A stretch of 64,000 nt of DNA, taken from NCBI RefSeq assembly GCF_044324785.1, contig NZ_CP172127.1, one strand, 5' to 3'. This document shows positions 10,968 through 45,973 of this stretch, in pieces. Source of the stretch: Escherichia coli (GTDB taxonomy: Bacteria > Pseudomonadota > Gammaproteobacteria > Enterobacterales > Enterobacteriaceae). Both the position numbers and the translations under genes were made by a program. How positions within the stretch are numbered: the stretch's first letter is position 1; each line of letters starts with the position of its first letter. The notes under the pieces are model-generated. The model worked only from the letters and a program-made list of their open reading frames with translations, searched no databases and was not told the DNA's origin.

Positions 10968-11858
10968 ATGATCAAGAAGACAACGGAAATTGATGCCATC
11001 TTGTTAAATCTCAATAAGGCTATCGATGCCCACTACCAGTGGCTGGTAAGTATGTTTCACAGCGTAGTCGCGAGAGATGCCAGTAAGCCAGAAATAACGG
11101 ATAACCATTCTTATGGACTGTGCCAGTTTGGTCGGTGGATTGATCATCTGGGGCCACTCGATAACGATGAATTACCTTACGTTCGGCTAATGGATTCTGC
11201 CCATCAACATATGCATAACTGTGGTCGGGAATTAATGTTGGCTATTATTGAAAATCACTGGCAGGACGCGCATTTCGACGCCTTTCAGGAAGGGTTGCTT
11301 TCTTTTACTGCGGCATTAACCGATTACAAAATTTATTTGCTGACGATCCGTAGCAATATGGATGTTTTGACGGGATTGCCGGGTCGTCGGGTTCTTGATG
11401 AATCCTTTGATCATCAGTTACGCAACGCTGAGCCTCTGAATCTTTATTTAATGTTGTTGGATATTGACCGATTTAAATTGGTTAATGATACCTACGGGCA
11501 TTTAATCGGCGATGTAGTATTACGCACCCTGGCAACTTACTTAGCCAGTTGGACGCGCGATTACGAAACGGTTTATCGCTACGGTGGCGAAGAATTTATC
11601 ATTATTGTCAAAGCGGCTAATGATGAAGAAGCATGTCGTGCAGGTATCAGAATTTGCCAGTTAGTCGATAACCATGCCATCACACATTCTGAAGGGCATA
11701 TCAACATTACCGTGACTGCAGGTGTGAGTCGCGCATTTCCTGAAGAGCCTCTGGATGTGGTCATTGGAAGAGCGGACCGGGCAATGTATGAGGGTAAGCA
11801 AACCGGAAGAAATCGCTGTATGTTTATTGACGAACAAAATGTGATTAACCGAGTTTAA
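10968..11858 (+). CDS. dgcZ: Zinc-regulated diguanylate cyclase (CZB + GGDEF)
   Basis: 296-aa ORF MIKKTTEIDAILLNLNKAIDAHYQWL...; CZB zinc-binding domain and a GGEEF active-site motif (YRYGGEEFIIIV). Confidence 0.9.
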   Translation: MIKKTTEIDAILLNLNKAIDAHYQWLVSMFHSVVARDASKPEITDNHSYGLCQFGRWIDHLGPLDNDELPYVRLMDSAHQHMHNCGRELMLAIIENHWQDAHFDAFQEGLLSFTAALTDYKIYLLTIRSNMDVLTGLPGRRVLDESFDHQLRNAEPLNLYLMLLDIDRFKLVNDTYGHLIGDVVLRTLATYLASWTRDYETVYRYGGEEFIIIVKAANDEEACRAGIRICQLVDNHAITHSEGHINITVTAGVSRAFPEEPLDVVIGRADRAMYEGKQTGRNRCMFIDEQNVINRV

Positions 11859-11902
11859 GCTCCGTTTAACATTCATTGAGAAAACTGATGCTACTGTGTC
11901 AA

Positions 11903-12001
11903 CGATCCGTTATCAGTGCAGGAAAATGCCTGTTAGCGTAAAAGCAAAACACAAATCTATCCATGCAAGCATTCACCGCCGGTTTACTGGCGGTTTTTTT
12001 T
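11903..12001 (+). ncRNA. mgrR: Candidate small RNA in the dgcZ-mgtS intergenic region (position expected for MgrR); boundaries approximate
   Basis: Non-coding stretch ending in a strong intrinsic terminator (caccgccgg-ttta-ctggcggt followed by T8 at 11993-12001). Location divergent from mgtS matches the known mgrR locus. The 5' end is not determined. Confidence 0.45.
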
Positions 12002-12007
12002 CGCCGT

Positions 12008-12049
12008 CATAAAAATCAGGCCCCTTGTACACAACTGTAACAAGGGGCC
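12008..12049 (-). terminator. Terminator hairpin for mgtS
   Basis: ggccccttgtacacaactgtaacaaggggcc hairpin with a flanking A-run on the + strand (T-run for the minus transcript). Confidence 0.5.
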
Positions 12050-12076
12050 GGTTAGGTGAGGGATTATCTCCGTTCA

Positions 12077-12172
12077 TTAGTCATCCCATTTGTGGCTGAA
12101 ATACGCGGCCAGAAAACCAGAAAATAAAATTATTCCCAGTACGGCCATAAAAACATTCATATTACCCAGCAT
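12077..12172 (-). CDS. mgtS: Small inner-membrane protein MgtS (YneM), 31 aa
   Basis: Hand translation of the minus strand gives MLGNMNVFMAVLGIILFSGFLAAYFSHKWDD*. It is below the ORF-track size cutoff; single TM helix. Confidence 0.8.
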   Translation of the reverse strand: MLGNMNVFMAVLGIILFSGFLAAYFSHKWDD

Positions 12173-12298
12173 TATTTGCCTCCGTTTATGGTGTGGTGTG
12201 TTTCCTCGCTTACCTTAATTTTCATCTCAATGAGAAAGATATTAGCAGAGGTAACCTAAACGAAGGCTGAATTAAATTTTTATTGTGTTCGACTTAAA

Positions 12299-13486
12299 TC
12301 AACAAAGCGCGGGCTGCCCCCACGGTCTTGCACGAATTCCTTTTAACATCAGCACCCACGCAGCAATGATCACCAACGCTAAGATGATAAACAGCGAGGA
12401 AGGCGGCAGGTTGGTTAGCACTATGCCACTCACTAATGGGTTAATCGCCGCACCAAGCCAGCCTAAAGACTGAGCGGAAAAATAGCTGGCTTTCATTCCT
12501 GGCGGCGCAATATGGTCAATCAACATATACTCGCCCGGCGCATAAATGATTTCACCGACAGTAAATACCGCAGCTGACATACCCCACAATAGCAGGCTGT
12601 TGCCGGAAAAAATAAAACCGACCAGACCGATGACGAAACAGAGGGTGCCTGCTGTCATCAGCGTGCGGATGTTAGCCGGGTTAAGTCGCCGGCCCACGGA
12701 ATATTGCAACGTAACCACCATGGCAGCATTCACCGGAAGAACAACCGCGACCACCTTTTCGGCAAAATCCCCATCAGCAATCACCATCACATATTGTGAA
12801 ATGCATGAAGCAAATGCGCCGCTAACAAAAGAAGCCAGAAAGCCAGAGCAGGTAAACCACAACAGTGCTTTATCTTGTAATAAAACTTTCGGCGACCAGG
12901 CACTGGCTGTTTCCGTGGCGATGATTTTCTCGCTGCGCTTTACCCAAATTTGAATGAAAAGCATGGGAAACGCGGAACAGATAGCTGCCAGCCAAAAGGG
13001 CAGATTGATGCTCTGCATCACCAACAGCGTGCCGAGCGGCGGACCGATGGTCCAGCCAATGTTTAGCATGGTGTAGTTGATTGAGAAGATTTTCGTTTTG
13101 CTGGTGGAGGAAAGATTGTCGGCAAACCAGGCTTTCAACACGGTAGCAAAAACGGAATAGGCGCAGTTAATAAGGGCAAAAAAGAGTACCACCAGCGTCA
13201 CGTTATTCACTAAAGGAATGGCAATAAAACCGCTGGCGAAGGCGGTAATTGCCAGTAACATATAGCGTTTCTTGTCGAACTTATCCGCCAGGATACCAAA
13301 ACCGAGGCTAAAAACGACGCCAATAGTGAGCGCAATTGTCATCGCATAACCGATTAGATCGACACTCAGGCTGTACTGGCGACTCAAGTAAATGGTCATA
13401 AACGGCAGCGTAGCGCCGCGTCCGATGGTTAATAACAACGACGAGGCAAGAAGGGCGCTGGTAGAGCGTCGTAGGGATAAGTTCAT
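12299..13486 (-). CDS. ydeE: MFS efflux transporter
   Basis: 395-aa ORF, 12 predicted TM segments, MFS-type. Confidence 0.8.
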   Translation of the reverse strand: MNLSLRRSTSALLASSLLLTIGRGATLPFMTIYLSRQYSLSVDLIGYAMTIALTIGVVFSLGFGILADKFDKKRYMLLAITAFASGFIAIPLVNNVTLVVLFFALINCAYSVFATVLKAWFADNLSSTSKTKIFSINYTMLNIGWTIGPPLGTLLVMQSINLPFWLAAICSAFPMLFIQIWVKRSEKIIATETASAWSPKVLLQDKALLWFTCSGFLASFVSGAFASCISQYVMVIADGDFAEKVVAVVLPVNAAMVVTLQYSVGRRLNPANIRTLMTAGTLCFVIGLVGFIFSGNSLLLWGMSAAVFTVGEIIYAPGEYMLIDHIAPPGMKASYFSAQSLGWLGAAINPLVSGIVLTNLPPSSLFIILALVIIAAWVLMLKGIRARPWGQPALC

Positions 13487-44976: not shown

Positions 44977-45409
44977 TAAACCCTGCACTTATCTGTTTAG
45001 AGCAATTCCGTGTTAGTTACACCAGGCAAACATTAACTATAGCTAATGATTTATAGCCATATAAACCATTAGTCGCTCTTGACCTTTCCTGACACTTCCC
45101 TTGTTCGCAATAATATTCTGTTTAGTCGCTGTTTATAAATATCATGCATAATGAAATCGTCATGTTATTTAGCGACATAAAATGTTTTTGCAAATACTCT
45201 CTACAACAAGTGCTGCAATAAACTTGTTGTGATTAGGTGTCCTTGTAATTTAAAGATATTATCGTTCTTCGTGAAATGTAATAACCCTGGAAACTATATT
45301 CTCAGGGCAACAACCAATTAAGAATGATTCTTGTTTTATAAGCAATAACAGAATGACTTAATTGTTAACTCTCTTTATTCAGCTACTTAAATATAAATTT
45401 TGGAGAATT

Positions 45410-45973
45410 ATGAAACTCAAACATGTCGGTATGATTGTCGTTTCTGTGTTGGCGATGTCGTCTGCTGCGGTAAGCGCAGCCGAGGGTGATGAATCAGTAA
45501 CGACCACTGTTAATGGCGGTGTTATTCATTTTAAAGGTGAAGTGGTAAATGCCGCTTGTGCGATTGATTCAGAATCAATGAACCAAACGGTTGAGCTGGG
45601 TCAGGTCCGTTCTTCTCGTCTGGCTAAAGCGGGTGACCTCAGCTCCGCCGTTGGCTTCAATATCAAGCTGAATGATTGTGATACCAATGTTTCCAGTAAT
45701 GCAGCTGTTGCATTCCTGGGTACTACTGTCACCAGTAATGACGACACATTAGCGCTGCAGAGTTCAGCGGCAGGCTCTGCCCAAAATGTCGGTATTCAAA
45801 TTTTGGACCGTACGGGCGAGGTATTAATACTTGATGGTGCCACTTTCAGCGCTAAAACTGACTTGATTGATGGCACGAATATACTGCCGTTCCAGGCTCG
45901 TTATATTGCTCTCGGGCAGTCAGTAGCTGGTACTGCAAACGCTGATGCGACCTTCAAAGTTCAATATCTATAA
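45410..45973 (+). CDS. Fimbrial major subunit (FimA-like pilin) of an F9/Yde-type chaperone-usher operon
   Basis: [23 protein letters not shown] signal peptide, GGAG ribosome-binding site at 45402-45405, conserved pilin Cys pair, C-terminal ...FKVQYL. Confidence 0.8.

Follow-up and report, generated by a model that had tools for sequence, protein, structure and literature searches.

The mgrR-mgtT-mgtS low-Mg2+ locus of Escherichia coli as two convergent transcription units

What lies between dgcZ and ydeE in an Escherichia coli genome (RefSeq assembly GCF_044324785.1, contig NZ_CP172127.1), and how are its small genes arranged? The question was raised for a stretch of 64,000 nt of this contig (hereafter the window), of which a preliminary description had named 2 small elements as the small RNA MgrR and the membrane protein MgtS. 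That naming is correct, as confirmed by mapping to K-12, by Rfam, NCBIfam, and Pfam scores far above their cut-offs, and by published PhoQ/PhoP induction (PMC11429745, 10.1101/2021.06.30.450655, PMC6239178), and no contradiction to it was found. The region 11859-12273 is the known E. coli low-Mg2+ locus mgrR-mgtT-mgtS, so its identification adds nothing new. Regarding its organization, we are highly confident that the best explanation is 2 convergent, separately promoted, PhoP-activated units of the E. coli low-Mg2+ response. The genes and reading frames of the region are listed below (minus-strand features are written from the higher to the lower coordinate).

ydeI, plus strand, upstream of dgcZ
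10968-11858, plus strand, dgcZ
Gap of 218 nt between dgcZ and the 31-codon ORF (12172..12077, minus strand)
11904-12001, plus strand, mgrR, 98-nt Hfq-dependent sRNA (K-12 b4698 mapping, Rfam RF01407)
12077..11973, minus strand, mgtT, 34 codons, MNGDNPSPNRPLVTVVYKGPDFYDGEKKPPVNRR (ORF, RefSeq and K-12 annotation, Pfam PF23498)
12172..12077, minus strand, mgtS (YneM), 31 aa, single hydrophobic helix (ORF, K-12 b4599, HMMs, codon pattern)
12225..12172, minus strand, upstream ORF of 17 codons, MKIKVSEETHHTINGGK (read from sequence)
13486..12299, minus strand, ydeE
eamA, plus strand, beyond ydeE

K-12 features were placed on the window by the mapping w = 1634818 − k, where the order is the same: mgtS (b4599), mgtT (b4775), and the ncRNA mgrR (b4698) are annotated between dgcZ and ydeE. 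Both mgtS and mgtT are identical to their K-12 counterparts, and mgrR is one base off. The identity, anatomy, promoter motifs, terminators, and conservation pattern of the locus were established in this analysis. The 3′ ends of mgrR and mgtS are 76 nt apart, with their promoters ~350 nt apart on the outer sides. The interval 11800-12320 was matched in 5416 of 5426 complete E. coli genomes, mostly with at least 99% identity, and 276 nt of the locus are 100% identical in many E. coli strains. Visual inspection can recover a 98-nt sRNA and genes as short as 31 and 34 codons, yet the orientation had been mis-stated and an overlapping gene overlooked. These errors concern anatomy, not identity.

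Several smaller observations were made while comparing genomes. Position 11820 is T in the window and C in both K-12 and E2863, which is a synonymous change of a Cys codon in dgcZ. E2863 is the aligned best match and differs from the window at this position only over the 521 nt compared; each of the 10 best E. coli matches listed is one base away from the window. In E. coli NZ_CP031215.1 the locus is matched in 2 places, the better of which covers only query positions 97-276, and this alignment suggests an insertion or rearrangement inside mgrR. PGAP-annotated RefSeq E. coli genomes list mgtS and mgtT with the mgrR ncRNA absent, and among the records examined only the curated K-12 has mgrR. 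Elsewhere in the window, Rfam IS009 (RF02111) matches at 748-946 on the plus strand (226.7 bits, gathering score 117).

As for the 31-codon ORF (MLGNMNVFMAVLGIILFSGFLAAYFSHKWDD), it is present on the minus strand as described, with a Shine-Dalgarno sequence GGAGG at 12183..12179, 6 nt ahead of the start codon. By itself a 31-codon ORF is not above chance, as 54 ORFs reaching 20 aa or more were counted in 3.3 kb. The reading frame is considered real because of its family scores, its orthologous loci, and the concentration of variation at third codon positions. The MgtS equivalog model of NCBIfam (NF033842) scores 80.6 bits against a cut-off of 35, and the MgtS-like family of Pfam (PF22865) scores 88.2 bits against 27, both over residues 1-31 of 31. 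Orthologous loci were collected by searching genome contigs with a degenerate DNA pattern for the MgtS core, which gave 68 stretches; 62 were accepted, and 6 that were due to chance or could not be used were dropped. A lack of conservation in related genomes had been named beforehand as refuting; the identification passes this check, as MgtS is kept at 30-31 aa in the 62 loci, which belong to at least 13 named enterobacterial genera. Codon-position entropy in 51 distinct orthologous sequences is 0.25, 0.13, and 0.94 for positions 1, 2, and 3, respectively. Judged by this substitution pattern, MgtS is under purifying selection across genera.

In comparison with MgtS of K-12 (b4599; Wang et al. 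2017), the 31-aa sequence is identical, the terminator, the Shine-Dalgarno sequence, and the promoter with its PhoP box agree as well, and no difference was found. Membrane localization of MgtS is tabulated in PMC11429745, and its stabilization of MgtA is described in 10.1101/2021.06.30.450655. The mgtS frame overlaps a neighbor at either end: the TAA of the 17-codon upstream ORF overlaps the mgtS ATG (TAATG), and the mgtS stop and the mgtT ATG have one base in common (TAATG, 12079..12075). Thus, 3 ORFs are chained in E. coli. The ATG of the upstream ORF is ~7 nt from the predicted mgtS 5′ end and is missing in E. albertii and in other genera. PIRT-seq weakly detected an AUG-initiated CDS upstream of mgtST, designated CDS58 (PMC12350097), which is probably this 17-codon frame.

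Describing the locus as a pair was incomplete, since the annotated 34-codon mgtT, which occupies most of the gap, had been overlooked. Its Pfam family (PF23498, MgtT) scores 96.3 bits against a gathering score of 27, and the sequence is an exact match to "protein MgtT". The 34-aa sequence and the one-base stop/start overlap are the same as in K-12 (b4775; Weaver et al. 2019), again with no difference. The gene was discovered by ribosome profiling (10.1101/511675), its translation has been shown in K-12, where the product is detectable with an epitope tag (10.1101/511675; PMC12350097), and the mgtS-mgtT operon is PhoQP-dependent (PMC11429745). One may therefore ask whether MgtT is a conserved functional protein of 34 aa, i.e., a third effector of the Mg2+ response on par with MgtS. 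Translation, induction, and the existence of its own Pfam family speak for this, as does the recurrence of the ATG and the first ~8 codons (MNGDNPxP) in 57 of the 62 loci. Comparison across genera, however, makes it unlikely. The length of the frame varies from 7 to 80 codons: 7 loci have the stop ahead of the hairpin discussed below, 22 have it within the hairpin, and 27 have it past the terminator. The 34-aa sequence is common to Escherichia only. Codon-position entropy for codons 2-9 equals 0.75, 0.93, and 1.13, in contrast to the third-position pattern of mgtS given above. A divergent E. coli allele has 0 changes in 96 positions of mgtS but 8 in the 75 positions belonging to mgtT only, and these 8 amount to 6 amino-acid replacements with none synonymous (3 Escherichia alleles were compared). 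Moreover, the residues that recur, RPL, KGP, and KK, are dictated by the sequence of the hairpin arms and of the stretch complementary to the MgrR U tail, and the ATG itself arises from tandem in-frame stops (TAA-TGA or TGA-TGA). Neither deletion nor overexpression of mgtT was found to give a phenotype (PMC11429745).

In this small sample the 34-aa MgtT appears to be a lineage-specific, possibly incidental or young product. The objects conserved at mgtT seem instead to be RNA features, namely, the tandem stops, a C-rich spacer, and a terminator hairpin at a fixed distance. It is a modest new point that, outside Escherichia, the mgtT frame lacks conservation at the protein level while the RNA features it overlaps are strongly conserved, and work on mgtT would need to separate coding effects from structural ones. 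The spacer comprises 27 nt (AUGAACnnnGAUAAUCCCCCACC, 12076-12050, minus strand) between the mgtS stop and the hairpin and is conserved across genera with a substitution pattern that is not coding-like. The idea that it is conserved mainly as the code for the MgtT N-terminus was rejected on account of the codon-position pattern. No convincing pairing of the spacer, either with the mgtS 5′ UTR or with MgrR, was seen on visual inspection. The hairpin that follows it belongs to the mgtS terminator:

12049..12009, minus strand, mgtS intrinsic terminator: hairpin 12049..12019 (−21.2 kcal/mol), then UGAUUUUUAU at 12018..12009

A consensus terminator scan overlooked this hairpin because its stem is bulged. 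It lies 13-29 nt (mostly 22-27) past the mgtS stop in every locus that retains the overlapping ATG, and compensatory changes are found in 7 of its 9 pairs, with none broken. The hairpin coincides with mgtT codons 10-20, and codons 24-34 lie beyond the U tract; therefore, full-length MgtT needs read-through of the mgtS terminator. The last 29 nt of mgtT are the complement of the MgrR terminator, while properly terminated mgtS and mgrR transcripts end ~8 nt apart without overlap.

These features admit a reading in which the 2 PhoP-induced convergent units are coupled through mgtT, the functional unit being the RNA arrangement and not the MgtT protein. Read-through mgtS RNA would then be antisense to the last 29 nt of MgrR, i.e., to its Hfq-binding terminator. 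Ribosomes on the proline-rich mini-ORF (MNGDNPPP...), which starts at the mgtS stop, would in nearly all genera come as far as the 5′ arm of the hairpin, and could in this way set the rate of read-through and of interference with, or pairing to, MgrR. Alternatively, the conserved C-rich spacer and hairpin could act as a 3′-UTR-derived regulatory RNA, and in this case too the RNA arrangement would be what functions. We regard the whole reading, in either version, as a long shot.

Leaving these proposals aside and returning to 2 separately promoted convergent units, the way in which they end varies among genera. In 4 Kluyvera-type loci (L012, L026, L040, and L070) the mgtS stop (TAA-CGG) abuts the MgrR terminator, and both the separate hairpin and the overlapping ATG are missing; a single hairpin appears to terminate transcription there in both directions. 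The overlapping ATG is also absent in K. georgiana (L036), where the hairpin lies at a larger distance.

Regarding the plus strand, the parts of mgrR are as follows.

11908-11938, plus strand, 5′ stem-loop (fold)
A-rich single-stranded center between the 5′ stem-loop and the terminator, plus strand (fold)
11958-11971, plus strand, pairing region UAUCCAUGCAAGCA (as published, PMC6239178)
11975-11994, plus strand, terminator stem of 8 pairs (6 G-C), followed by T8 (the U tail) to 12001

The terminator is the strong one that had been noticed on the strand opposite the ORF. Rfam RF01407 (STnc560, which is the Salmonella name for MgrR) matches 11870-12083 on the plus strand with 281.9 bits against a gathering score of 55 (E = 1.8e-64), its model being 214 nt and hence longer than the 98-nt RNA. 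The suggested comparison of 11900-12001 with MgrR was borne out both by this score and by the identity of 97 of 98 nt to K-12 mgrR. The RNA folds at −25.9 kcal/mol (z = −2.89), and none of 200 shuffled sequences is as stable. Its only difference from K-12 is at base 11908, where the window has C and K-12 has T: a U-G pair becomes C-G, which makes the stem pair stronger, and C is the allele common to many other E. coli strains. Position, strand, length, 5′ stem-loop, A-rich center, pairing region, U8 terminator, and PhoP-box promoter are otherwise the same as for MgrR of K-12 (b4698; Moon & Gottesman 2009). The fold obtained here agrees with the probed structure, which has 5′ and 3′ stem-loops, an open A-rich center, and a pairing region U55-A68 (PMC6239178).

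The pairing region (nt 55-68) is unpaired in the minimum-free-energy fold except for a weak 3-bp helix. In 48 aligned sequences (the window and 47 orthologs) its CCATGCA core (CCAUGCA in the RNA) is invariant and its flanks are at least 90% conserved. The MgrR terminator has compensatory changes in 3 of its 8 pairs. The 5′ stem-loop could not be aligned into a consensus across all genera, RNAalifold retaining the terminator only. The MgrR center pairs with positions −10 to +9 of the K-12 eptB start region at −18.7 kcal/mol; since 77 of 1000 shuffled seeds reach the same energy, this is consistent with the published target but not discriminating. When MgrR was paired at full length with the eptB leader in RNAduplex, the end-to-end duplex obtained was meaningless and did not surpass shuffled sequences, and the run was repeated with the MgrR center alone.

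Because mgrR immediately follows dgcZ on the plus strand, and its U8 terminator would also end dgcZ transcripts, 11859-12001 might be taken for merely the dgcZ 3′ UTR and terminator with no independent sRNA gene. This is highly improbable. A conserved module of PhoP box and extended −10 element stands at the spacing expected for the annotated 5′ end, the invariant pairing region is that of the experimentally studied MgrR, and K-12 annotates an ncRNA. In addition, both the RNA and the promoter are kept in genera that lack dgcZ as a neighbor: only Escherichia and some Citrobacter have dgcZ next to mgrR, and in Salmonella the gene beside mgrR is ydeI. Thus, mgrR is a unit of its own and not a dgcZ 3′ UTR.

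In class I PhoP-activated promoters, such as those of mgtA, mgrB, and phoP, a box (T/G)GTTTA-N5-(T/G)GTTTA takes the place of the −35 element. Both mgrR and mgtS are preceded by modules that resemble these.

11852-11879, plus strand, predicted mgrR PhoP-box region, 3 hexamers at 11-bp phase (motif and conservation)
11852-11857 AGTTTA, 11863-11868 CGTTTA, and 11874-11879 CATTGA, plus strand, the mgrR hexamers
11889-11897, plus strand, extended −10 element TGcTACTGT of mgrR with the hexamer TACTGT at 11892-11897, 6 nt before the annotated 5′ end at 11904
12273..12239, minus strand, mgtS promoter (PhoP-box-like repeat and −10 element)

A PhoP-box-like repeat upstream of ~11900 had been anticipated, and the 3 hexamers are found there. 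The first of them, AGTTTA, overlaps the dgcZ stop codon and is an extra in-phase hexamer found in Escherichia. With it, 11852-11868 has 2 mismatches to KGTTTA-N5-KGTTTA and an intact GTTTA-N6-GTTTA core, which is one of 3 such cores in the 64-kb window. The canonically placed pair, CGTTTA-N5-CATTGA (11863-11879), has 4 mismatches among the 12 specified consensus positions. It is this pair that is conserved across genera; it occupies −41 to −25 and ends 12 nt before the mgrR −10 element, which in turn aligns with a conserved TG-n-TAnnnT in orthologous promoters. The MgrR 5′ end, 11904 here, was reportedly found by Moon and Gottesman in 2009 to be triphosphorylated and dependent on PhoP.

On the minus strand, the mgtS promoter consists of AATTCA-N5-CGTTTA (12273..12257), 12 nt, and a −10 element TAATAT (12244..12239), which predicts a transcription start near 12232. 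The box of mgtS had been sought in 12173-12250, but that interval contains the −10 element, and the box-like repeat lies outside it. The repeat has 4 mismatches to the consensus; together with the −10 element, it is kept in almost all the genera aligned, Klebsiella and Cedecea among them, and is degenerate in Kluyvera. In both promoters, a direct repeat with (C/T)GTTTA, conserved across genera, is followed after 12 nt by a TAnnnT −10 element. Like class I promoters, they have hexamer repeats at 11-bp phase, 12 nt before the −10 element, without a recognizable −35. They depart from the class I consensus in that one half of each box is close to it (CGTTTA) and the other is degenerate (CATTGA in mgrR and AATTCA in mgtS). 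With 27 matches of at most 2 mismatches in the window against 19.5 expected, boxes picked by score alone are not above chance; the function of the 2 boxes is predicted on account of conservation, position, and published PhoQP dependence, not of consensus score.

The divergent geometry of the preliminary description, with both genes read outward from one intergenic promoter region under PhoP control, has practically no chance of being right: nothing in the sequence supports it, there are 2 separate modules of PhoP box and −10 element (11852-11897 and 12273..12239) on the outer sides, and mgrR (11904 to 12001, plus strand) and mgtS (12172 to 12077, minus strand) face each other with their 3′ ends, in agreement with K-12 annotation and with the report that the 2 genes are "transcribed convergently" and are PhoPQ-dependent (10.1101/2021.06.30.450655).

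Two further PhoP-box matches in the window lie near a fimbrial gene. A perfect consensus (TGTTTAGTCGCTGTTTA) is located at 45119-45135 on the plus strand, with CATAAT 10 nt further on. It is ~275 nt upstream of the gene for a fimbrial major subunit (ATG at 45411), in a ydeQRST/F9-type region that is partly deleted in K-12. A quick literature search returned no paper linking PhoP to F9 fimbriae. A second box, with 1 mismatch, is found at 46141-46125 on the minus strand, just downstream of the same gene.

For the 2 convergent PhoP-activated units, the course of events in low Mg2+ may be outlined as follows. Activated PhoQ/PhoP would let PhoP-P bind both predicted boxes and turn on both units. 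On the plus strand, the promoter overlapping the end of dgcZ would drive the 98-nt MgrR, which would stop at its own U8 terminator. With Hfq, MgrR would pair through its invariant center and repress eptB, ygdQ, pitA, and other mRNAs. The second PhoP-box promoter, on the minus strand, would drive the mgtS-mgtT mRNA. In the inner membrane MgtS would raise intracellular Mg2+, stabilizing the importer MgtA and, going by the title of Yin et al. 2019, reportedly modulating PitA. In E. coli mgtT is translated, beginning at the stop/start overlap, and only transcripts extending beyond the hairpin of the mgtS terminator can yield the whole protein. All sequence elements needed by the published mechanism are present, intact, and conserved. 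Its steps, i.e., PhoQ/PhoP control, the MgrR targets, and MgtS action, are taken from the literature (PMC11429745, 10.1101/2021.06.30.450655, PMC6239178), and the same holds for PhoQP dependence, Hfq dependence, and the activity of MgtS toward MgtA and PitA.

According to a profile of the 98-nt RNA, MgrR is present in 50 of the 62 enterobacterial MgtS loci, normally convergent and adjoining, and the mgrR-mgtS pair stays linked where the neighboring gene differs. A search at the Rfam gathering score recovered STnc560 from no more than 3 of 16 other loci, since the flanks covered by the 214-nt model are not homologous. In Klebsiella michiganensis, MgrR (L032:3615-3685) is ~6 kb from mgtS (~L032:9569-9664). 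The other loci of the K. oxytoca/Raoultella group and those of the Cedecea neteri/davisae group have mgtS without MgrR in the flanking DNA examined. Enterobacteriaceae bacterium RIT691 carries 2 MgrR copies ~1.6 kb apart on the same strand (L009:1408-1501 and L009:3002-3094). A contig of a "Caldithrix sp." MAG (L010) contains a mgtS-mgrR locus identical to that of E. coli, and one labeled "Chryseobacterium sp. 18061" (L056) has a Citrobacter-like locus; these 2 labels most likely reflect contamination or mislabeled public records.
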